A DNA stretch of 64,000 bases from Candidatus Omnitrophota bacterium (GTDB lineage Bacteria > Omnitrophota > Gorgyraeia > Gygaellales > Profunditerraquicolaceae): assembly GCA_041663665.1 (NCBI GenBank), contig JBAYMG010000002.1, positions 99,509 to 163,508 on the forward strand, written 5' to 3'. Of this stretch, positions 18,470-48,646 are shown one piece after another; position 1 is the first letter of the stretch; each line of letters opens with the position of its first letter. Below the pieces are notes generated by a model that searched no databases, was not told the origin of the DNA, and saw only the letters and a list, made by a program, of their open reading frames with translations. The position numbers and the translations under genes are program-made.

Positions 18470-19711
18470 ATGGAATTTATTGCTGACTTTCACATTCATT
18501 CCAAATATTCCCGGGCAACCAGCCGTGATATGGATATCAAGCATTTAGCTCTTTGGGCAAAATTAAAAGGTATAACCTTAATAGGGACAGGTGATTTTAC
18601 GCATCATCTGTGGCTGGAGGAGTTAAAAAATAATTTGGAAGATTGCGGTAATGGTTTGTATAAGCATGCCGGCGTTTATTTCATGCTTACCGCTGAAATC
18701 AGCAGTATTTACTCAAAAAATGGTAAAGGGTACCGTATCCATAATCTTATTTTTGCTCCTTCATTCGCGGCGGTAGATAAAATAAATAATGCTTTATCCG
18801 GCCGAGGAGCAAATTTAGCCAGCGATGGTCGCCCGATCATCGGAATTGATGCCGCAGAACTTGCACGGATTGTGTTTGATATTGATGAAAAGAATATAAT
18901 CGTGCCAGCTCATATTTGGACTCCGTGGTTCTCGGTATTTGGTTCAATGTCCGGATTTGATAAAATCGAAGATTGTTTTGAGAAGCAAACCGATAAAATT
19001 TTTGCTGTTGAAACCGGATTATCGAGTGATCCGGAGATGAATTGGCGGTTAAGCGCCTTGGATCGGTTTACGTTGATTTCTAATAGTGACGCACATTCGC
19101 CGCAAAAGCTCGGGCGCGAAGCCAATGTTTTTAATTGCGATTTAGATTATCAAACCATAAGAGAGGTTTTAAAAACCAAAGATAAAAAAAGATTTTTATA
19201 TACTATCGAATTTTTTCCTGAGGAGGGCAAGTATCATTATGACGGCCACAGGCTTTGCGGCATTCGTTGGTCGCCCCAGGAGACCAGAGCCCATGATGGG
19301 AAGTGCCCAAAGTGCGGTAAACTGGTAACTGTAGGCGTGGTTAACCGGGTTGAAAAGTTAGCTGACCGCAAGGAAGGTTTTGTCCCGGATAATTCTATTC
19401 CCTTTAAAAATTTAATTCCTTTTTCTGAAATAATTGCTGAAGCAAAAGGAGTGGGGAAGGTCTCTGTGACCGTTGAAAGAGACTATCAAGCTTATTTGCC
19501 TAAATTTGGGACAGAATTTAATATTTTACTTAAGGCTTCCAAAGGTGAATTACTTAAAAGCCTGCCTCCTAAAGTAGTTGATGGTGTTTTGCGTGTGCGA
19601 GAGGGCAAGGTGGATATTAAAGCAGGTTTTGATGGTGAGTATGGCACAATTTCTATATTTAATGATGATCAGAAGCTGAAGAAAGATGGGGAACAGTTAA
19701 GTTTATTTTAA
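18470..19711 (+). CDS. PHP-domain nuclease with Cys/His zinc-finger, resembling endonuclease Q
   Basis: N-terminal DFHIHSKYSRATS PHP motif, further His/Asp PHP motifs, and HRLCGIRWSPQETRAHDGKCPKCGK zinc-ribbon-like insert. 413 aa, like archaeal and Bacillus EndoQ. Confidence 0.45.
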   Translation: MEFIADFHIHSKYSRATSRDMDIKHLALWAKLKGITLIGTGDFTHHLWLEELKNNLEDCGNGLYKHAGVYFMLTAEISSIYSKNGKGYRIHNLIFAPSFAAVDKINNALSGRGANLASDGRPIIGIDAAELARIVFDIDEKNIIVPAHIWTPWFSVFGSMSGFDKIEDCFEKQTDKIFAVETGLSSDPEMNWRLSALDRFTLISNSDAHSPQKLGREANVFNCDLDYQTIREVLKTKDKKRFLYTIEFFPEEGKYHYDGHRLCGIRWSPQETRAHDGKCPKCGKLVTVGVVNRVEKLADRKEGFVPDNSIPFKNLIPFSEIIAEAKGVGKVSVTVERDYQAYLPKFGTEFNILLKASKGELLKSLPPKVVDGVLRVREGKVDIKAGFDGEYGTISIFNDDQKLKKDGEQLSLF

Positions 19712-39364: not shown

Positions 39365-41332
39365 ATGAAGTCAAATAATAAAAAGGATAAGCCGGCAGAT
39401 AACAGAAGGTATCTGCGTTTAGATACGGTGTTTCCGGTGCAGTTTCGTCTTGAAACCCCGGATGATAAAGTTCTTTTATCTACCTGGTTGCAGGGGTTTA
39501 CTAATAACGTAAGCTGCGGAGGAATCTGCCTTTTTATCAACAATCCGGATCCTCAGCTGCTTAAGCTGCTTCATGAGAAAAAATTTAAGCTCTCTTTGGA
39601 AATTGATATCCCGATTAGCCGAAAACCTATTCCGGCGTTGGCCAGTATTGTCTGGGTTAGGGATGTCTTGGGGGATACTCGTAAATATTTAATTGGTTTA
39701 AATTATGATCAGATATCAAAAAAACAAAATAGCAAGCTAATGCGTTATGCTTGGTTGAAGAAGCTTTTAGTTCCGACGGCTTTGTCACTGGTGGTAATTT
39801 TGGCTTTAATTCTGGGGGTTAATAGTTACTCTAATTTTAAATTAACTCAAGGCAATAAGCTGTTGGTTGAAAAATTGGCGGTGGTTTTAAGGGATTCAAG
39901 TTTAGCTAAGAAAAAAATAGAAGAGGTTATTGCTGAACGCCAGGATTTCCAGTCGAAATTAAAGATTCTAGAGAAAAATATAAAATCCACGGAGTCGCAA
40001 AAAACACAAATTGAATCTCAAAAGACCCAGGTAGAAATAGGCAGTTTAGTCCAAGTTAACCAGATTAATCAGCTTAATGGTTTGATTGCCGGATTACTAA
40101 AAGAAAAATCTGCTTTAGAGCAAAAACTGAACACTGTCGTAGCCAGCGAGAACATTGCGGTTAAAGAGTTAACTCAGCTGAATGAGAAAAAGGTTGTACT
40201 TGAAAAAGTTAATTTTGATAAGATGTACCAGTGGCTTAAAATCCATCAAAATAAGAGCACCGGTTTAGCTATGAGTTTTGAAGGAGACAAAGAGATTGCC
40301 AACTGGTCATTTACTTATGATTTGGCTTTGCTCGTGCAGGCTTATACCTGGTTTGGAGATGCCGACCGCGCAAAAAGGATCCTGGATTTTTTTGCCCATG
40401 ATGCTAAAAGAGAAAATGGCTGGTTTTTGAATGCCTATTATGTTAATGATGGCGGACCGGCGGAGTTTATCATGCACAGCGGGCCGAATATCTGGATGGG
40501 GTTAGCTGTAATGCAGTATACCCAAAAGACTCAGGACAGGAGTTACTTGGGTTTAGCGGAAAGTATAGCGGATACAATTATTAAAATTCAGAACGAGGAC
40601 CCGGGTGGTGGTATTCGCGGCGGGCCGCAGGTTGAGTGGTATGCTACCGAGCATAATCTTGATGCTTACGCGTTTTTTAATATGTTAGCTAAGGTTACGG
40701 GAAAGAAAATATATTATCAGGCTGCCCAGAAAACGCTGAATTGGATTGTTGATAATACTTATAATCAGAAGGATTTACCGATTAAACGCGGTAAAGGGGA
40801 TTCTACTATTGCTACAGATACTTATGCTTGGTCAGTTGCTGCTATCGGGCCGCAAAAACTAAAAGATTTGGGTATGGATCCGGATAGGATTCTGGAATTC
40901 GTAGAGGAGAACTGCAGTGTTGAGGCAAATTTCATCCGGCCAAATAATCAGAGTGTAAAAATTAAAGGATTCGATTTTGCTCCACAGGCGCACACTGCCC
41001 GGGGAGGCGTGGTATCTTCGGAATGGACCGGACAGATGATTGTTTCCTATAAAATCATGGAAGATTTTTATGCTAAAAAAGGGGATATCGCTAAAGCAAA
41101 TAGTTATAAGAAAAAAGCCGAAATGTATTTAAGTGAATTAGGTAATATGGTTATTTCCAGCTCTTCGCCTTCGGGCCAGGGGCAAGGTTGCCTTCCGTAT
41201 GCCACTCAGCAACATGTAGATACCGGTCACGGTTGGATGACTCCCAGTGGCAGCCATACAGGGTCGGTTTCCGGTACAGCCTATACCCTTTTTGCTTATT
41301 ATGGCCTTAATCCCTTAGAGCTTAAGGAATGA
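39365..41332 (+). CDS. PilZ-domain (c-di-GMP receptor) fusion protein: PilZ, TM, coiled-coil and a C-terminal alpha-rich domain of about 330 aa
   Basis: RRYLR (RxxxR) and NVSCGG (D/NxSxxG) PilZ motifs. TM at about residue 140. Heptad-rich segment at about 170-270. C-terminal Trp/Tyr-rich domain that may have an (alpha/alpha)6 glycosidase-like fold. Confidence 0.7.
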   Translation: MKSNNKKDKPADNRRYLRLDTVFPVQFRLETPDDKVLLSTWLQGFTNNVSCGGICLFINNPDPQLLKLLHEKKFKLSLEIDIPISRKPIPALASIVWVRDVLGDTRKYLIGLNYDQISKKQNSKLMRYAWLKKLLVPTALSLVVILALILGVNSYSNFKLTQGNKLLVEKLAVVLRDSSLAKKKIEEVIAERQDFQSKLKILEKNIKSTESQKTQIESQKTQVEIGSLVQVNQINQLNGLIAGLLKEKSALEQKLNTVVASENIAVKELTQLNEKKVVLEKVNFDKMYQWLKIHQNKSTGLAMSFEGDKEIANWSFTYDLALLVQAYTWFGDADRAKRILDFFAHDAKRENGWFLNAYYVNDGGPAEFIMHSGPNIWMGLAVMQYTQKTQDRSYLGLAESIADTIIKIQNEDPGGGIRGGPQVEWYATEHNLDAYAFFNMLAKVTGKKIYYQAAQKTLNWIVDNTYNQKDLPIKRGKGDSTIATDTYAWSVAAIGPQKLKDLGMDPDRILEFVEENCSVEANFIRPNNQSVKIKGFDFAPQAHTARGGVVSSEWTGQMIVSYKIMEDFYAKKGDIAKANSYKKKAEMYLSELGNMVISSSSPSGQGQGCLPYATQQHVDTGHGWMTPSGSHTGSVSGTAYTLFAYYGLNPLELKE

Positions 41333-41742
41333 AACGCAGGTTAAATTCTATTTTGCTCCGCCTTTATTCTGTTTTTGGCTCGCAGTATTGGTGGCCGGCG
41401 GAAAGCGTTTTTGAGGTAATTGTTGGTGCGATTTTTACTCAAAATACTAGTTGGTTGAATGTCCAGAAGGCTATCGCGGTTCTTAAAGGGAAAAAACTTT
41501 TAAACGCCAGAAAACTTTATAAGTTAAGCCTTAAGGAGCTTGCTAATTTAATTAAAAGTTCCGGATTTTATAATATTAAAGCCGATGCGGATTATTCCAG
41601 TGTCCAGAATATTTTTATGCGTAATCTTAAAACCGACGTAAAATTGTTTAATGAGTATTACGCTCTTTTAGTCAAGCTTGGCAAGGATTATTGCCGTAAA
41701 CAAAATCCTAAATGCCGGATTTGCCCGCTCAATGGTCAATAA
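41329..41742 (+). CDS. minimal HhH-GPD superfamily (EndoIII-like) protein, 137 aa, with a 3-Cys C-terminus
   Basis: WWPAESVFEVIVGAIFTQNTSW N-terminus, an HhH-like LKELANLIKSSGFYNIKA, then CRKQNPKCRICP. Much shorter than Nth. Confidence 0.5.
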   Translation: MKRRLNSILLRLYSVFGSQYWWPAESVFEVIVGAIFTQNTSWLNVQKAIAVLKGKKLLNARKLYKLSLKELANLIKSSGFYNIKADADYSSVQNIFMRNLKTDVKLFNEYYALLVKLGKDYCRKQNPKCRICPLNGQ

Positions 41743-42862
41743 AAAACGTTTAACGAGAACTATTAAAAAATTGATTTCCATAGATTCCCAGAATCCCGGA
41801 GGCAATGAGAGCCGGGTTGCCGGTTTTGTTAAAGCATATTTAAAGAAACTAGGAATTAAAGTTAAAACTTTTGCTTTTAGTGCCAAAAGAGAAAATGTTA
41901 TTGCAATCCTGGAGGGAAAGAAAAACTCAAAGTCGCTTTTAATTACTCCGCACCTGGATACTGTCCCGGCCGGAGGGAGCTGGAAGACAAATCCTTTTTG
42001 CGCCAAAGTTATCGGCAATAAGATTTATGGTTTGGGTGCAACAGATTGCAAAGGCAATTTAGCTAGCGCCTTAGAGGCAATCAATTCGTTAGTTGAAGAC
42101 GGTGTTAAGCTTGATTATCATTTAATTTTTGCTGCTACTGCAGATGAAGAGAGCGGCTCAGAGTTGGGGCTAATTCCCCTGCTTAAGCGTAAGATTTTAA
42201 AAGCAGATGCCGCGGTTGTTTTAGATGCTGATGATTTTGAAATTGTTATTACTCAAAAAGGGTTAATGCATTTAAAGGTGCGTATTTTTGGGAAAAAGGC
42301 TCACGGTGCTTATCCCTGGTTAGGAGTTAATGCCATTGATCTTGCCGCCAAAATAATTGTGGACTTAAAGAAGCAAAATAAAGCTTCGCCTAAAAATAAA
42401 TATCTGCATGGGCCGACGATAAATGTCGGAACGATTAAGGGAGGGGATAAAGTAAATGTGGTTAGTAACTGGTGTGAATTTGAGTTGGATTTTAGGTTTC
42501 TCCCGGGATCAAGCGAGAAAGAGTTGTTAAATTGTTTAAGGAAAACCATCGCCAGGTATACTAATAATTTTAAAATTGAAATCCAAGGAATTCAAAATCC
42601 ATACTATATTGATCCAACCCATCCTTTAGTTAATAGTTTAGTTGCGGCTATGCAGGGTTTGGGGGTTAAGCCGCGCATCAGCGGTTCAGAAGGTGCAACT
42701 GTTATAACTTTCTTTAAGGCTATGGGGATTCCGGCAATTGCCACGGGATTTGGCACAGAGGGGTGTGCGCATATTGCCGATGAATATGTATCTTTGAAAA
42801 ATTTGTATATCGGGGCAAAGGTTCTGGTCGAATTTTTAAAAAAATATAAGTTTAATAACTAA
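41732..42862 (+). CDS. M20-family peptidase (ArgE/DapE-like deacylase)
   Basis: ISIDSQNPGGNE, HLDTVP, GATDCKG and the AATADEESGS metal-site motifs. Start placed at the internal Met to avoid a long overlap with the previous gene. Confidence 0.8.
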   Translation: MVNKKRLTRTIKKLISIDSQNPGGNESRVAGFVKAYLKKLGIKVKTFAFSAKRENVIAILEGKKNSKSLLITPHLDTVPAGGSWKTNPFCAKVIGNKIYGLGATDCKGNLASALEAINSLVEDGVKLDYHLIFAATADEESGSELGLIPLLKRKILKADAAVVLDADDFEIVITQKGLMHLKVRIFGKKAHGAYPWLGVNAIDLAAKIIVDLKKQNKASPKNKYLHGPTINVGTIKGGDKVNVVSNWCEFELDFRFLPGSSEKELLNCLRKTIARYTNNFKIEIQGIQNPYYIDPTHPLVNSLVAAMQGLGVKPRISGSEGATVITFFKAMGIPAIATGFGTEGCAHIADEYVSLKNLYIGAKVLVEFLKKYKFNN

Positions 42863-42882
42863 CATAATCATAGGAGAAAAAT

Positions 42883-43896
42883 ATGGAATCAGTAATCATT
42901 ACTAAGAAGCCTCGGCTTAAAAAACCTTATTTTATTGTTGCTTGGCCGGGTATGGGTGAGGTAGCGGCTAACGCAGCTAATTATTTAATTAACGAGTTAA
43001 AGGCACAGGAGTTTGCGCACATTGTTCCGGAAGAATTTTTTTATCATACCGGTAGCATTATTTCTTCAGGGATACTGGAAATTCCCCTTCTGCCGGAGGG
43101 TAAATTTTATTATTGGAAAAATCCTGCTGCAAGACGTGGCGGGCCCGCCAAGAACTCCGGCGGGAAAACATGCGGAAATGATTTAGTTATTTTTTTAAGT
43201 AATGCCCAGCCGGATTTATCCAAGGCGGATATTTACGCAAAAATAATTATTGGATTGGCTAAAAACCTAAAAACAGAGATGATTGTGAGTTTTGCTTCAA
43301 TGCCTCAGCCGACTGATCACACTCAAGTGCCGGGAGTTTGGCTTGCAGCAACTGATGAAAAAATAAAAGAGAGTTTAAAGAAGTTTAATTTCAACATATT
43401 ACAGCAAGGCCAGATTAGCGGGATGAACGGTTTATTTTTGGGTATGGCTAAAAAAGCAGGGTTAAGAGGGTTTTGTTTGCTCGGAGACATTCCGCTTTAC
43501 ACTATCCAAATCGAAAATCCCAAGGCTTCTGCCGCGGTATTGCAAGCTTTAGGTAAGATATTGTCCTTGTCAATAAATTTGCAGCCGTTACAAGAACAGG
43601 CCAGGGCCATGGAAAATGAAATTAATAAATTGTTAGAGTATTTAAAATTGGGTCCAGCTAGCCAGTCTGCCCCCATTGGTGAGGAAGAAGTTGAATTAAT
43701 CAAGAAAACTTTAAGCCAGCTCACCAAATTGCCTGTTTCGATCAAAGAAAAGATCGAAAAACTTTTTGAAGAAAGCCGGGTTAATATCGCTAAAGCCACG
43801 GAATTAAAAATAGAACTGGATAAGTGGAATGTTTATAAGGAATATGAAGATAAGTTTCTGGATCTTTTCAGGAAAAATACAGATAAAGGAAATTAG
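42883..43896 (+). CDS. PAC2-family protein
   Basis: YFIVAWPGMGEVAANAANYL N-terminus is typical of bacterial PAC2-family proteins; 337 aa; good RBS. Confidence 0.5.
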   Translation: MESVIITKKPRLKKPYFIVAWPGMGEVAANAANYLINELKAQEFAHIVPEEFFYHTGSIISSGILEIPLLPEGKFYYWKNPAARRGGPAKNSGGKTCGNDLVIFLSNAQPDLSKADIYAKIIIGLAKNLKTEMIVSFASMPQPTDHTQVPGVWLAATDEKIKESLKKFNFNILQQGQISGMNGLFLGMAKKAGLRGFCLLGDIPLYTIQIENPKASAAVLQALGKILSLSINLQPLQEQARAMENEINKLLEYLKLGPASQSAPIGEEEVELIKKTLSQLTKLPVSIKEKIEKLFEESRVNIAKATELKIELDKWNVYKEYEDKFLDLFRKNTDKGN

Positions 43897-43899
43897 TCT

Positions 43900-44532
43900 A
43901 TGCCCGGTAAAATAAAAGCCGTCCTTTTTGATCTAGGAAAAGTTTTGATTGATTTTGACCATCGGAGGTCTGCCGAAAGAATATCCGGTTTTTGCTCAAA
44001 AACTCCGGCTGAGATTTATAATCTTTTTTTTGAATCGGAAGCGACGATTGCCTTTGAGGCAGGGAAGATTTCCCCGGAAGATTTCTATCTTAGAGTTAAG
44101 GAAATGCTGGATTTGAAGTTAAGTTTTGAGTCTTTCGGGCCGATCTGGAATGATATTTTCTACTTAAACTCTAACAACCGTTCAGTTTACCGGTTAGTCA
44201 ACACTCTGCGAATCAACTATAAAACTGTCCTTCTTTCTAATATAAATGTTTTGCACTATGAGTATCTAAAAGAGCATTTTCCGGTGTTTGGAGTTTTTGA
44301 TGAGATTTTTCTCTCTTTTCGACTTGGCTTGATTAAACCGGACAAAGAAATTTATAAAAAAGTTATTGCTGAACTAAAAGTTGCCCCGCAGGAAATTTTT
44401 TACACAGACGATCGGAAAGAGTTGGTTGAGGCGGCTAATTCTCTTGGTATAAGGGGGCATCTTTTTGTAAATTTCGATCAATTAATGAATGATATTCAGA
44501 AGGCGGGAATAACTTTCCTCGACGGCAAATAA
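43900..44532 (+). CDS. HAD-superfamily hydrolase
   Basis: Motif I FDLGKVL (DxG variant), and a C-terminal DD motif (YTDDRKE). Confidence 0.7.
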   Translation: MPGKIKAVLFDLGKVLIDFDHRRSAERISGFCSKTPAEIYNLFFESEATIAFEAGKISPEDFYLRVKEMLDLKLSFESFGPIWNDIFYLNSNNRSVYRLVNTLRINYKTVLLSNINVLHYEYLKEHFPVFGVFDEIFLSFRLGLIKPDKEIYKKVIAELKVAPQEIFYTDDRKELVEAANSLGIRGHLFVNFDQLMNDIQKAGITFLDGK

Positions 44533-44747
44533 GACAATAAACTCCTGTTTTTTAGAGCAAAAATTACTTGACAATGCCAATATATTATGGTAAAAAAAGA
44601 ACATAGGTAGAAGATTTTGCATAAATATTTTGGAGGTTTATAAACTAACGTTGAAAAAAATTGGATAGATTCCTAAGGGCTGCTGGAAAATGATTCAAAC
44701 CGGGCCCTTATTTTTTTAAGCAGCGGTAATTTTAAACTAAATTTTAT

Positions 44748-45737
44748 ATGAAAACTGTTGGATTAACCTACGATTTAAAAACAGATTATAAATTTAAAGA
44801 AGGCGACCCGCTTGATGCTAATGCCGAATTTGATGCCCCTTCAACGATTGATGTTATTGCTGCTGCCATCGCTGCTAACGGCTACAATGTAAAAAAAATC
44901 GGCAATGCTTTAAATTTATTAGAAAAAATGGATAATTTGGGGGTCGACATTGTTTTTAATATTTCTGAAGGCCTGACCGGAAGAAACCGGGAGTCCCAGG
45001 TCCCTATCTTGCTTGAAATGGCCGGGGTGCCTTTTGTCGGAGCGGATGCCTTAACTTTAGGTTTAACTTTAGATAAGGTTATGGCTAAAAAGATTTTTTT
45101 GGCTGAAAAAATCCCTACTCCTAATTTTTTTGAGGCTTCATCTGCGGATGCGTTAATTGATCAAGCCCATTGTAAATTTCCGCTAATTGTTAAGCCGCGT
45201 TTTGAAGGTTCATCAAAAGGTTTAAGCGAAAGTTCCCGTGTAGAAAATGCCGAGGAACTTAAGAAGCAGGTTGATTTTATTACCAAGACTTACCGGCAGC
45301 CGGCTTTGGTTGAGGAATTTATTTCCGGTCAGGAGTTTACGGTAGCGATTATCGGTAATGATAATCCTGAAGTTATGCCGGTTGTACAGATAAAAATTGA
45401 TGGAAAATTAAAATTAAATGATAAGTTTTATACCTTTGCGCGGATTACTTCGGATAGGCTGGAATACATCTGTCCGGCTAAAATAAGCCAGGAATTAAAG
45501 AAAAAGCTTAATGACCTGGCTTTAAAAGTTTATCGCAGCGTTGAATGCCGGGATTTTGGCAGGGTGGATTTTCGTGTTGATAACGAAGGTAATCCCTATG
45601 TCCTGGAAATTAATCCACTGCCCTCTTTATCTACGGAAGATGTTTTTATGTTGATTGCTAACAATATTGGGATTACCTATAATCAGATGGTGGGAAAAAT
45701 TTTAAATAGCGCTATTATTAGAAACGGAATAAAATAA
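44748..45737 (+). CDS. D-alanine--D-alanine ligase-family ATP-grasp ligase, paralog 1
   Basis: EGLTGRNRESQVPILLEMAGVPFVGA (Ddl N-domain), ATP-grasp core, and a C-terminal LEINPLPSL. Confidence 0.75.
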   Translation: MKTVGLTYDLKTDYKFKEGDPLDANAEFDAPSTIDVIAAAIAANGYNVKKIGNALNLLEKMDNLGVDIVFNISEGLTGRNRESQVPILLEMAGVPFVGADALTLGLTLDKVMAKKIFLAEKIPTPNFFEASSADALIDQAHCKFPLIVKPRFEGSSKGLSESSRVENAEELKKQVDFITKTYRQPALVEEFISGQEFTVAIIGNDNPEVMPVVQIKIDGKLKLNDKFYTFARITSDRLEYICPAKISQELKKKLNDLALKVYRSVECRDFGRVDFRVDNEGNPYVLEINPLPSLSTEDVFMLIANNIGITYNQMVGKILNSAIIRNGIK

Positions 45738-46736
45738 ATGAGAGTCGCACTTACTTATAATTTAAAAAAGAAAGATCCTTTAAAGCCTGCGGATTATTTT
45801 TCCGAATATGATTCCGAAGAAACAATTAGCTCGGTTATTTCAGCACTTAAGACCAAAGGTCATTCTGTCGACGCCATTGATGTGGAATACCCGGCTTTAT
45901 TTTCTTACTTTAGGAAAAATCGCGTTGACATGGTCTTTAATATCGCCGAAGGAAAACACGGCCGTTTTCGCGAATCTGAAGTCCCGGCGGTATTAGATTA
46001 TTTGAAGATCCCTTATACCGGTTCGCATACATTTTCTCTGGCTTTGGCTCTCAATAAGGCATTGACTAAAAAAATATTAAAAGCCGAAAATATTCCTACT
46101 CCTAATTTTCAGCTTTTTTCAAAAGGCAATGAAGTGTTGGCAAAAGATTTAAAATTTCCTTTAATTGTTAAGCCTAATTGCGAAGGTTCAGCTAAAGGAA
46201 TAAATAAAACCAATGTTGTCAACAACGAAGAGGACCTTTTCAAAAAAGTAAGAGAGTGTATTAATGTCTATCGCCAGGAAGCTTTAGTTGAAGAATTTAT
46301 TGAAGGTAAAGAATTGACTGTGGGTATCCTAGAAAATGGCAAAACCAGAGTGCTGCCGATTTTAGAAATAGATTTTTCTAACTGTGAAAAAAGCGGGGAG
46401 TATTTTTATTCCTGGAAAATGAAGGAATTCCAAGGCAATAGCGAATTAGGGTTAGTGCCTGAATTTTATTGTCCGGCGAGGTTAGATAAGGAAACAGAGG
46501 CAAAAGTAAAAGAGGTGGCTTTACGTACGCATCGGGCGGTAGGCTGTTTAGATATTTCGCGGACAGATATTCGTTTGGATAAATTTAATGTGCCGTATGT
46601 TTTAGAGATTAACCCTTTACCGGGGTTAGATCCCAAAGAATCTAATTTCCCAATGATGGCATATGCTGCCGGAATGAAGTATGAAGATCTCATTGAGGCT
46701 ATATTGACGAGCGCCTCGGAAAGGAAGATGGTTTAA
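45738..46736 (+). CDS. D-alanine--D-alanine ligase-family ATP-grasp ligase, paralog 2
   Basis: EGKHGRFRESEVPAVLDYLKIPYTGS and LEINPLPGL. ATG abuts the paralog-1 stop (TAAATG). Confidence 0.75.
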   Translation: MRVALTYNLKKKDPLKPADYFSEYDSEETISSVISALKTKGHSVDAIDVEYPALFSYFRKNRVDMVFNIAEGKHGRFRESEVPAVLDYLKIPYTGSHTFSLALALNKALTKKILKAENIPTPNFQLFSKGNEVLAKDLKFPLIVKPNCEGSAKGINKTNVVNNEEDLFKKVRECINVYRQEALVEEFIEGKELTVGILENGKTRVLPILEIDFSNCEKSGEYFYSWKMKEFQGNSELGLVPEFYCPARLDKETEAKVKEVALRTHRAVGCLDISRTDIRLDKFNVPYVLEINPLPGLDPKESNFPMMAYAAGMKYEDLIEAILTSASERKMV

Positions 46737-46737
46737 A

Positions 46738-47925
46738 TTGAATAATCCTGTAGGTTTAGAAAATCAAAAAGTGCAGGTTGAAATACCGGCAATTCCTAAA
46801 CCGCCAAAACGCTCGCGTGATTATCAGCAAATCTCTCTTTATAAAGATGTTAATCCTTTGGATTGGGAGGATTGGCATTGGCAGCTTAAGCATCGGATAC
46901 GCACTAAAGAAGAATTAGTCCAAATTATTAAGCTTACCTCCGAAGAAGAAAAAGGAATTGATAAAGCTAAAGGCAGGTTGGCAATGGCAATTACTCCTTA
47001 TTGGGCCAGCCTTATTGATGCTGATGATCCGGAATGTCCGATTAGAAGGCAGTCTGTACCGGTAAATTCTGAATTTTCGATTTCTCCTCATGAGATGGCT
47101 GATCCTTGTGCTGAAGACCGTGATTCCCCCGCGCCACATTTAGTACACAGGTATCCGGATAGGGTTTTATTGTTGGCTACAGATCATTGCGCCATGTATT
47201 GCCGGCACTGTACCCGCCGGCGCTTAGTTGGTGACCATGAAGAGAAAGATTTAAATTGTGAAAATAAATTTGATCAAGCTATAGAGTATATTAAAGCTAA
47301 CCGAAAAATAAGGGACGTTTTAATTTCTGGAGGCGACCCGCTCACTTTAGAAGATACGGTTCTAGAGTCATTAATTTCTAAGATTCGCAGTATATCGCAT
47401 GTTGAATTATTGAGAATCGGAACGCGCGTACCGGTGACTTTACCTCAGCGTATTACCGAGAGCTTGGTGAATATGCTTAAAAAATATTCTCCGATTTGGA
47501 TGAGTATCCATTTTAATCATTCTAAGGAAATTACTAAGCGTTGTAAAAATGCCTGCGATATGCTTTCTGAAGGCGGTATACCTTTGGGTAGTCAATCAGT
47601 GTTGCTTAAGGGTATCAACGATCGCCCGTTTATCATGAGGCGTTTGGTGCATGACCTTTTGCAGATAAGAGTAAGGCCATATTATATTTACCAGTGCGAT
47701 CCAGTTAGGGGTACTCAGCATTTTCGAACCCCTGTAGCTGTGGGAATAAATATTATTGAAAAATTACGCGGGCATACTTCTGGTTATGCAGTTCCAACCT
47801 ACGTTATTGATGGTCCAGGCGGCGGAGGAAAGATTCCAGTGGGTCCAAACTACATCCTTTCTCAGGCCAAAGGTAAATATGTCTTGCGAAATTATAAAGG
47901 CAAGATTTATACCTACCTGGAATAA
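46738..47925 (+). CDS. kamA: lysine 2,3-aminomutase (radical SAM, PLP-dependent) family
   Basis: CAMYCRHCTRRR radical-SAM cluster motif, SGGDPL, and QSVLLKGIND...YQCD blocks. TTG start 1 nt after the previous stop, with a GGAAAGGAAG RBS. Confidence 0.85.
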   Translation: MNNPVGLENQKVQVEIPAIPKPPKRSRDYQQISLYKDVNPLDWEDWHWQLKHRIRTKEELVQIIKLTSEEEKGIDKAKGRLAMAITPYWASLIDADDPECPIRRQSVPVNSEFSISPHEMADPCAEDRDSPAPHLVHRYPDRVLLLATDHCAMYCRHCTRRRLVGDHEEKDLNCENKFDQAIEYIKANRKIRDVLISGGDPLTLEDTVLESLISKIRSISHVELLRIGTRVPVTLPQRITESLVNMLKKYSPIWMSIHFNHSKEITKRCKNACDMLSEGGIPLGSQSVLLKGINDRPFIMRRLVHDLLQIRVRPYYIYQCDPVRGTQHFRTPVAVGINIIEKLRGHTSGYAVPTYVIDGPGGGGKIPVGPNYILSQAKGKYVLRNYKGKIYTYLE

Positions 47926-47944: not shown

Positions 47945-48646
47945 ATGAAAATAAGCGCATTTGCAATTAGTGATATTGTTTTGGGTAAGCATAATGTTAA
48001 AGAATTGCGGCTTGATCAAGCTGATAAAATAGTTAAGGCTAAGAAAAAAACTTATCCTCAAGTAGAATTAGTCGGAGAGGATGGAGCTTTTGAAGCGGAT
48101 GTTATAATTATTCCTAAAGATGCTAAAACTGACCTTATCTTGCGTGATTTAGATTTTGTCGAAACCCGCCTGGCTAAATCTCCGGCAGAGAAGGAAAAAA
48201 TAATTTTAGAAAAAATGAGAATAGCCTTAGAGAAAGAAGAATTTATTTCAACTCTGGGCTTGACTGAACCTGAGAAAGAAGTTGTTTCCGGCTATGGCCT
48301 GCTTACTCTTAAACCGGTAGCTGTAATCGATAAAGATGAGTTAGCTGATATGGGCGCTCTTTTGGCAAAAGTTTTAGCCGCCAGCGGATTTATTTATTTT
48401 TTGACTGTTGGAGATAAAGAGAATCGCGCCTGGATGATTAAATCCGGAACTACTGCCTGGGAAGCAGCGGGTGCAATCCATTCTGATATCCAGCAGGGTT
48501 TTATCCGTGCTGAAATTATAAGTTTTGCGGATTTTATTGCTTGCGGCGGAGAAACAGGAGCTAAGCAAGCCGGTAAAATGCGGCTTGAGCAAAAAGAATA
48601 TATAATGCAGGATGCAGATTTAGTTAATTTTAGATTTAATAAATAA
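47945..48646 (+). CDS. YchF-like protein (DUF933/TGS C-terminal domain) lacking the P-loop GTPase core
   Basis: C-terminus VGDKENRAWMIKSGTTAWEAAGAIHSDIQQGFIRAEIISFADFIACGGETGAKQAGKMRLEQKEYIMQDADLVNFRFN is collinear with the E. coli YchF C-terminus. LLTLKP and a coiled-coil insertion are present. No GxxxxGKS motif. The in-frame 47756 start overlaps kamA and is rejected. Confidence 0.6.
   Translation: MKISAFAISDIVLGKHNVKELRLDQADKIVKAKKKTYPQVELVGEDGAFEADVIIIPKDAKTDLILRDLDFVETRLAKSPAEKEKIILEKMRIALEKEEFISTLGLTEPEKEVVSGYGLLTLKPVAVIDKDELADMGALLAKVLAASGFIYFLTVGDKENRAWMIKSGTTAWEAAGAIHSDIQQGFIRAEIISFADFIACGGETGAKQAGKMRLEQKEYIMQDADLVNFRFNK

Follow-up and report, generated by a model that had tools for sequence, protein, structure and literature searches.

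What is made where a lysine 2,3-aminomutase is encoded directly behind two ligases that resemble D-alanine-D-alanine ligase (Ddl)? This question is raised by a locus of Candidatus Omnitrophota in a stretch of 64,000 nt from contig JBAYMG010000002.1 (GCA_041663665.1, positions 99,509-163,508, forward strand), which as a whole is called the window below. To our knowledge, the fates of beta-lysine are few: the osmolyte N-acetyl-beta-lysine, the modification of elongation factor P (EF-P), lysine fermentation and antibiotics made by non-ribosomal peptide synthetases (NRPS). The locus consists of three genes:

44748..45737, + strand: G1, predicted Ddl-fold amide ligase of the ATP-grasp type, from a clade here named AGx; 329 aa
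45738..46736, + strand: G2, predicted paralogous ATP-grasp amide ligase of the AGx type; 332 aa
46738..47925, + strand: KamA, predicted KamA/AblA-type lysine 2,3-aminomutase using radical S-adenosylmethionine (SAM) and pyridoxal phosphate (PLP), C-terminally short; 395 aa, TTG start

We put the probability that this trio is an operon for a beta-lysine-derived amide or short peptide at about 0.65. A preliminary description of this DNA had placed the three open reading frames (ORFs) at exactly these coordinates, with 1-nt gaps that it took as a sign of co-translation. The gap between G2 and KamA is indeed 1 nt, but G1 and G2 adjoin directly (TAA/ATG, 0 nt). The argument from spacing does not stand either, because tight spacing is normal for the source genome and proves little: 29 of the 48 same-strand junctions in the window are no longer than 3 nt, and the median is 2 nt. 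The close packing is nevertheless kept, since in most orthologous loci the gaps within the trio lie between about -1 and 2 nt, and the KamA start lies at an aligned position, being TTG in 20 orthologues and ATG in eight. The gap of 215 nt 5' of G1 is among the longer same-strand gaps of the window. The G1 sequence itself is identical to an NCBI entry from a metagenome-assembled genome (MAG) of Candidatus Omnitrophota.

The aminomutase sets the likely substrate. KamA matches the Pfam models Radical_SAM and LAM_C as well as TIGR03820 of NCBIfam, and aligns with the lysine 2,3-aminomutase (LAM) of Clostridium subterminale (2A5H) with E = 9.5e-144 over residues 32-395. It narrowly passes the cut-off of TIGR03820, the AblA equivalog (531.1 versus 525.4 bits), and stays below those for glutamate 2,3-aminomutase (471 versus 650), arginine 2,3-aminomutase (419 versus 600) and EpmB (254 versus 369.3). 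In the alignment on LAM, the CxxxCxxC motif (LAM Cys125, Cys129 and Cys132) and the PLP-binding Lys337 are kept. Asp293 and Asp330 bind the epsilon-ammonium group of lysine in the LAM crystal structure, and both are Asp in KamA, where YQCD corresponds to IYQCD293 of LAM and YVIDGPGGGGK to FVVD330APGGGGK. Glutamate 2,3-aminomutase reportedly carries Lys and Asn at these two positions, according to a paper of Ruzicka and Frey. The preliminary description had pointed to the Asp residues of the YQCD and IND blocks; the first is the equivalent of Asp293, but GINDRP aligns with Asn266-Asp267 of LAM and not with Asp330. Its broader claim, a lysine-type enzyme free of the glutamate-type Lys/Asn exchange, is borne out by the two Asp residues and by the curated cut-offs.

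KamA is shorter than the clostridial enzyme: its last residue corresponds to LAM residue 367, and the C-terminal ~50 residues are missing. Of the 127 positions of LAM_C, just 1-56 are covered. LAM Cys268 is replaced by Arg. We take it that the C-terminal extension of 2A5H aids oligomerisation and contributes, together with Cys268, to a Zn site. Other KamA proteins that are linked to ligases of the same clade run 2-45 residues longer, and all those that stand alone as proteins keep Asp293, Asp330, Lys337 and the cluster cysteines. The active site thus looks intact and of the lysine type, and we infer that KamA makes beta-lysine from L-lysine.

The two ligases are 39% identical, and both match the Dala_Dala_lig_C and ATP-grasp models, in agreement with their earlier description as paralogous Ddl-like enzymes. 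In Pfam, Dala_Dala_lig_C is matched strongly by both and Dala_Dala_lig_N by neither, while matches to RimK and TTL are only marginal. G1 scores 189.4 against the cut-off of 243 for Ddl in TIGR01205 and 166.9 against 245.65 in NF002378; the corresponding scores of G2 are 209.8 and 169.0. All curated cut-offs for Ddl, DdlA and Van remain unreached. An AlphaFold2 model of G1 (mean predicted local distance difference test score, pLDDT, 95.3) has Ddl enzymes as best fold matches in the PDB, at template modelling (TM) scores of 0.75-0.80 and 24-27% identity; this search returned Ddl enzymes only and carries no information on specificity.

Residue-level comparison separates what is shared with Ddl from what is not. 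The characteristic motifs of G1 are AEFD, FNI[AS]EGxxGRNRES, EGSS and LEINPLP, and G2 differs from it in the acceptor-site loop (PGLDPKESNFP). An alignment of 30 family members gives as invariant ATP-, Mg- and catalytic residues Lys110, Lys149, Glu189, Arg272, Asp274, Glu287 and Asn289 (G1 numbering); Lys97, Lys144, Arg255, Asp257, Glu270 and Asn272 of DdlB align with catalytic invariants of this family. Both ligases look catalytically competent. Other residues are invariant in the family but not in Ddl, namely Glu27 in AEFD, and Phe70-Asn71-x-x-Glu74-Gly and Arg81-Glu82 in FNIAEGxxGRNRES, a motif that stands where Ddl has its HGxxGEDG region. In DdlB, His63, Tyr216 and Ser281/Leu282 are residues of the D-Ala sites, the Ser281-Leu282 segment holding the carboxylate end of D-Ala2. 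His63 corresponds to the family-invariant Glu74. The omega-loop pair Lys215-Tyr216 reads Arg-Ile in G1, and this loop is variable across the family. Ser281-Leu282 becomes (Glu)Asp-Val in G1, Ser-Asn in G2 and Ser-Asp in most relatives; G2 retains Gly276- and Ser281-like residues and has Asn at position 282. This mapping on DdlB agrees with a computed alignment to Yersinia pestis Ddl. The extra acidic residues (Glu74 and the conserved Asp at Ser281/Leu282) would fit substrates with an additional amino group. Judged by curated thresholds and D-Ala-site residues, G1 and G2 have the fold of Ddl without being Ddl, and they form a separate, unnamed clade. The possibility that they are redundant ordinary Ddl enzymes, which the preliminary description had named as the finding that would undo its proposal, is countered by the sub-cut-off scores, the absent Dala_Dala_lig_N match, the exchange of His63 for Glu, the changed omega loop and relatives in Bathyarchaeia.

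Within Omnitrophota, the linkage of ligases and aminomutase is close to complete. Relatives of G1 at 80-92% identity fill more than 100 protein clusters, and all named ones belong to this phylum. A scan of one genome per species gave at least 597 matching stretches, and loci were compared for the best 80 of these (59-91% identity). These 80 come either from Omnitrophota or from contigs labelled Planctomycetales or Margulisiibacteriota with the same synteny. Such contigs (L002, L010, L013, L021-L025 and others, publicly labelled 'uncultured Planctomycetales' or 'Margulisiibacteriota') have typical Omnitrophota synteny and a G1 that is 78-91% identical, and their labels are probably taxonomic mislabels. 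In 63 loci at least 2.4 kb are available 3' of G1: 58 show the order G1-G2-KamA, five show G1-KamA, and none is without KamA. Co-occurrence with kamA in related genomes, on which the earlier proposal depended, is therefore found in 63 of 63 informative loci. In one MAG (JAGOOP01), two contigs (L068 and L069) each carry G1-G2-KamA with near-identical identity values, which could reflect a duplication, strain heterogeneity or a binning artefact.

Sequence conservation of the trio exceeds that of its surroundings. In the 32 loci that hold all compared genes, the mean identity to the window is 78% for KamA, 74% for G1 and 71% for G2, against 68% for PurH, 65% for M20, 62% for both PAC2 and the YchF-C-like protein (YchF-C), 54% for HAD and 53% for FolC. 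Locus by locus, identity is above that of PurH for KamA in 32 of 32 cases, for G1 in 29 and for G2 in 23. The flanking genes vary. Upstream, there may be HAD, a PF27030 ('AbpE_bact') gene or others; the PF27030 gene lies directly 5' of G1 in 32 loci and is absent from the window. Downstream, an EF-G-like gene (~650 aa; L001 12273-14231) stands between KamA and the YchF-C-like gene in 37 Omnitrophota loci and is likewise absent from the window. The flanks change while G1-G2-KamA persists; the trio is a stable unit under strong constraint. The upstream M20, PAC2 and HAD genes (41732-44532) had been suggested as accessory. They are syntenic only in Omnitrophota and never accompany the module in other lineages, which speaks against that suggestion; they were rejected as pathway members, since between them and G1 come a promoter, a terminator and, in many cases, further genes over 1-2 kb.

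Outside Omnitrophota, the association extends to distant lineages. A search of 1.84 billion cluster representatives gave 1,128 ligase relatives at E ≤ 1e-30, the named ones from Myxococcota, Desulfobacterota/Thermodesulfobacteriota, Bacillota, Dictyoglomi and Bathyarchaeia. Many of the 1,128 are proteins of 600-720 residues with two ligase domains. In 25 long proteins, both domains are of the G1/G2 motif type (AGx-AGx tandem fusion), while the extra N-terminal parts of longer homologues yielded no further domains in Pfam. These tandem ligase fusions directly support, in the Rosetta-stone sense, the view that G1 and G2 act together. KamA and a ligase are also fused to each other, in opposite orders, in P0189 (ligase-KamA) and P0255 (KamA-ligase).

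Gene contexts outside Omnitrophota were taken from the loci of named relatives and from 80 metagenome loci. They reveal two old paralogous ligase clades: AGx with the motifs FNIAEG..GR.RES, EGSS and NPLPG, to which both G1 and G2 of the window belong, and AGy with FNL[CF]E[GS], ED[AG]S and NPNPDISP. Scans of AGx, AGy and the associated GNAT acetyltransferases against NCBIfam gave no specific family. We provisionally define the module by the AGx motifs (AEFD, FNIAEGxxGRxRES, EGSS and LE[IV]NPLP) with KamA within a few kb, a combination present in the window. Co-occurrence with kamA holds in unrelated genomes too, in four further architectures besides the rare KamA-ligase fusions. In Dictyoglomi, a ligase gene overlaps that of KamA (ligase-KamA). 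In Desulfobacterota, an AGx ligase is followed by a histidine kinase, a sigma-54 regulator, a response regulator and then KamA-AGy, with AGx located 4-5 kb upstream. Bathyarchaeia show GNAT-KamA-AGx, with AGy on the opposite strand followed by a transporter of the major facilitator superfamily (MFS). An unplaced lineage has a compact KamA-AGx-AGy-GNAT operon. Of the 49 loci outside Omnitrophota, 29 contain KamA; where both flanks extend for at least 3 kb, the figure is seven of 11. The GNATs of related modules are RimI-like and show no match to the AblB model TIGR03827 at E ≤ 1e-5. Neither an AGy paralogue nor a small GNAT was found beside the trio in Omnitrophota loci, which have two AGx-type genes instead.

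The split module of the Desulfobacterota type recurs in L086, L110, L114, L136, L146, L149, L151, L155 and L163, with a single-domain response regulator as third regulator; these two-component genes suggest signal-dependent expression of KamA and the AGy ligase. A Cytidylate_kin2 domain (PF13189) adjoins the KamA-ligase module in two unrelated lineages (L083 9220-11055; L088 5652-6302, minus strand). It is fused to an MFS transporter in Bathyarchaeia and stands alone in Dictyoglomi, and may be an additional component.

Several observations weigh against a dedicated beta-lysine pathway. The whole Omnitrophota neighbourhood is fairly syntenic, which makes adjacency within this phylum weaker evidence than it appears. 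The 3' end of the transcription unit is unmarked: a gene resembling the C-terminal part of YchF follows KamA after 34 nt, and then purH, folC and mnmE in close succession. Fusions between KamA and a ligase are seldom seen (clusters of 2 and 1), and in P0189 the KamA part carries Gln at position 293. The substrate suggested by the ligase residues comes from an alignment to Ddl, not from a ligand-bound model. Finally, loci of the ligase clade exist without nearby KamA, namely Bacillota-like solo genes (L085, L087 and L096) and a Myxococcota tandem fusion (L082) with a GNAT and an amidohydrolase behind it; members of the clade thus need not be tied to beta-lysine.

These last loci are the starting point for the alternative with the most in its favour, in which the ligases work independently of KamA. 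They would be a general (di)amino-acid ligase pair, producing for instance a dipeptide solute from proteinogenic amino acids, while KamA, though often next to them, would serve another purpose, for example the supply of free beta-lysine or N-acetyl-beta-lysine. Bacillota-like and Myxococcota loci do have AGx ligases, in some cases along with a GNAT, but no KamA close by, and tight spacing is the norm of the genome. Still, KamA adjoins the ligases in five gene orders, in distant phyla and in both domains of life, is fused directly to them in both orders, and is missing next to G1 in none of the 63 informative Omnitrophota loci. Moreover, no AblB-type acetyltransferase stands beside the module. 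We regard this explanation as unlikely.

A second alternative shifts the target from a small molecule to a protein. KamA would supply beta-lysine, and the ATP-grasp enzymes would attach it to a protein amine or carboxylate, comparable to the beta-lysylation of EF-P by EpmA/EpmB or to tailing by RimK and TTL, ATP-grasp enzymes that do modify proteins. The conservation of the trio, on average above that of purH and folC, is what a function in a core process would show, and 37 Omnitrophota loci have the EF-G-like gene directly 3' of KamA, with the YchF-C-like gene downstream. The ligases, however, are nearest to small-molecule Ddl in sequence and fold and not to RimK or TTL, and KamA resembles AblA and LAM (531 bits) rather than EpmB. 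The module is also present in Bathyarchaeia, which use hypusinated aIF5A and not EF-P, and no candidate substrate gene is kept beside it across lineages. Taken together, this makes a protein-modifying system quite improbable.

It is very improbable that G1 and G2 are ordinary, redundant ligases for D-Ala-D-Ala (or D-Ala-D-X) in peptidoglycan and neighbours of kamA by chance. Their best database and structure matches are Ddl enzymes, relatives are publicly annotated as 'D-alanine--D-alanine ligase', and G2 has the Gly276- and Ser281-like residues. Against this stand the scores below all curated Ddl, Van and DdlA cut-offs, the differing invariant motifs with Glu in place of His63 and an omega loop that is not conserved, homologues with the same motifs in Bathyarchaeia, the linkage and fusion to KamA, and the absence of mur, fts and dcw genes among the scanned ORFs of the window. 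Lysine catabolism with unrelated ligases can practically be dismissed: KamA is indeed the first enzyme of clostridial lysine fermentation, but no kamDE, kdd, kce, kal or B12-dependent 5,6-aminomutase gene occurs in the window or in more than 160 related loci, and ATP-consuming ligases point to biosynthesis.

For the favoured beta-lysine amide or peptide operon, the following route can be proposed. KamA would convert L-lysine to beta-lysine, presumably the (3S) form as for LAM and AblA. G1 and G2 would each activate a carboxylate as acyl phosphate and join it to an amine, a mechanism suggested by the conserved ATP, Mg and transition-state residues. The two probably work together, whether in a heterodimer built like the dimer of Ddl or one step after the other, as the many natural ligase-ligase fusions indicate. 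They would yield a small peptide of two or three residues, or a short oligomer, that contains beta-lysine, with beta-lysine as acyl donor, amine acceptor or both; in the other lineages, the small GNAT would give an N-acetylated version. Most likely, this product serves as a soluble cytoplasmic metabolite, either a compatible solute or a cationic counter-ion, and the high conservation suggests that it is important in Omnitrophota. A cell-wall modification is less likely because relatives of the ligases occur in Bathyarchaeia, a class of archaea not known to have murein. A bolder version is possible but doubtful: a new class of cell constituent (an ATP-grasp-assembled beta-lysine peptide or oligomer) or an ATP-grasp-catalysed beta-lysylation of a macromolecule, near-essential in Omnitrophota, shared with Bathyarchaeia, Dictyoglomi and Desulfobacterota, and governed by a new leader that senses lysine or the product.

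The enzymes are familiar; what is unfamiliar is the proposed pathway with its product, how widely it is spread and how well it is conserved in Omnitrophota. Among the closest precedents is AblA/AblB, which makes N-epsilon-acetyl-beta-lysine in methanogens and some bacteria. It likewise starts with a LAM-type aminomutase, the KamA of the window passing the AblA model, and in both systems beta-lysine is derivatised by amide formation to a small cytoplasmic metabolite, as proposed here for the trio. However, AblAB relies on an acetyl-CoA-dependent GNAT, whereas the trio has a pair of ATP-dependent ATP-grasp ligases; no AblB homologue is found beside the trio and no GNAT flanks it. EpmA/EpmB (PoxA/YjeK) also combines a KamA-family aminomutase with an ATP-dependent enzyme for a beta-lysyl amide, but EpmA is a class II lysyl-tRNA synthetase (LysRS) paralogue that acts via an adenylate. 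No LysRS-like gene, efp or epmA was detected among the scanned ORFs (most of the window from 13 to 52 kb). The separation from ablAB and EpmAB drawn in the preliminary description is thus upheld, there being no AblB-type GNAT and a KamA below the EpmB cut-off.

PylB and PylC offer a similar logic, in which a radical-SAM enzyme rearranges lysine and an ATP-grasp enzyme then forms an amide bond to the epsilon-amine of a second lysine. The likeness between a radical-SAM lysine mutase with an ATP-grasp ligase and the trio is an analogy, with no homology shown: PylB, a carbon-skeleton mutase, stands outside the KamA family of aminomutases, PylC is not among the PDB sequence matches of G1 and G2 at E ≤ 1e-10, the trio has no PylD, and its product would not be a genetically encoded amino acid. 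Small peptides are also made by ATP-grasp enzymes independently of ribosome and NRPS in Ngg (GNAT plus ATP-grasp), which produces the dipeptide osmolyte N-acetylglutaminylglutamine amide, in the L-amino-acid ligases BacD/YwfE, and in carnosine synthase, which shows that an acyl donor may be a beta-amino acid. The trio would work alike, and the pairing of GNAT and ATP-grasp seen in Ngg recurs in relatives of the KamA-ligase module. Yet these enzymes belong to other ATP-grasp subfamilies, and none is known to use beta-lysine or a radical-SAM partner. With Ddl and VanA, G1 and G2 share the fold, the ATP-, Mg- and transition-state residues and presumably the acyl-phosphate mechanism; they differ in their sub-cut-off scores, substrate-site residues, genomic context and archaeal occurrence, and in being paired and often fused. 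We found no paper or curated family describing the combination of KamA with ATP-grasp ligases, in line with the earlier remark that no characterised pathway has this gene composition, although a previous in-silico notice cannot be excluded.

The region upstream of G1 carries a conserved leader, found by comparing the regions 5' of G1 across loci. In the window, it comprises:

44568..44596, + strand: predicted sigma-70-type promoter, with TTGACA at 44568-73, a 17-nt spacer and an extended -10 element TG-n-TAAAAA at 44588-96
44632..44668, + strand: leader box, with GGAGG at 44632-36 and, 14 nt on, TTG AAA AAA ATT GGA TAG at 44651-68
44675..44717, + strand: hairpin resembling an intrinsic terminator, AAGGGC...GCCCTT with a T7 run behind it, 30 nt 5' of the G1 start

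The element CTTGACAA-N14-TRTGRTAAAAAA is common to about 60 of the 80 Omnitrophota loci, and the box core TAAATTGRAAAAA is conserved across loci in which G1 is only 62-91% identical. In the window, the box reads as a mini-ORF, M-K-K-I-G-stop, and in most loci it starts with M-[E/K/G]-K. This mini-ORF is uncertain because the spacing of 12-14 nt between Shine-Dalgarno sequence and start is long, so the box could encode a peptide or be an RNA or DNA site, and its recurrent Lys codon is only suggestive. In the alifold consensus of 22 aligned loci, the hairpin stem has both compensatory and GU changes. The distance from the end of the T-run to the ATG of G1 is 3-30 nt in most loci, and the operon must therefore be transcribed by read-through; the terminator is probably an attenuator, and expression would proceed from the conserved promoter. 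An inverted repeat, ATATTGTG ... ACAATAT, straddles the -10 region in many loci (leader region 44563-44717). Rfam gave no riboswitch or known leader, either for the whole window or in a permissive search of the 5' leader, and only four tRNAs in the window. A consensus scan for promoters and terminators returned fewer sites than in shuffled sequences and missed the G1 promoter, as it required T at the last -10 position.

The remaining genes of the window are housekeeping genes, including glmS, a pyrimidine operon and a V/A-type ATPase operon. Some further genes are worth recording. The YchF-C-like gene at 47960-48646 (the listed ORF, from 47756, overlaps KamA) contains only the C-terminal domain of YchF (PF06071; TIGR00092 positions 280-367) and no GTPase domain, and its L001 orthologue of 233 aa has the same single domain. 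The segment 37876-41332 encodes a stand-alone LPG_synthase_C protein of 296 aa (MprF C-terminal, DUF2156-type), followed by an overlapping 196-aa ORF, a 15-nt gap and a 655-aa protein with an N-terminal PilZ domain and a GH76-like domain. The HhH-GPD-like ORF at 41329-41742 has 137 aa in the window compared with 222 aa in L001, so that this glycosylase-like gene may be truncated. The longest M20 ORF (41678-42862, TTG start at 41678) overlaps it, and the M20 start is more likely near 41732. Within the pyrimidine operon, a 413-aa ORF without Pfam match (18470-19711) sits between a dihydroorotase-like gene and a tRNA/carB-like gene.

Omnitrophota are an uncultured phylum with ultra-small cells, and their physiology is little known. 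In this phylum the module is near-universal and, on average, better conserved than genes of purine and folate synthesis. The analysis also flags a conserved candidate cis-regulatory leader and offers a lead on the function of more than 1,000 protein clusters that are now annotated as 'D-alanine--D-alanine ligase'. Since the trio comprises just three small genes, it is directly testable. If true, the association of KamA with dedicated ATP-grasp ligases across bacteria and archaea would represent a new and widespread fate of beta-lysine, and a new metabolite.

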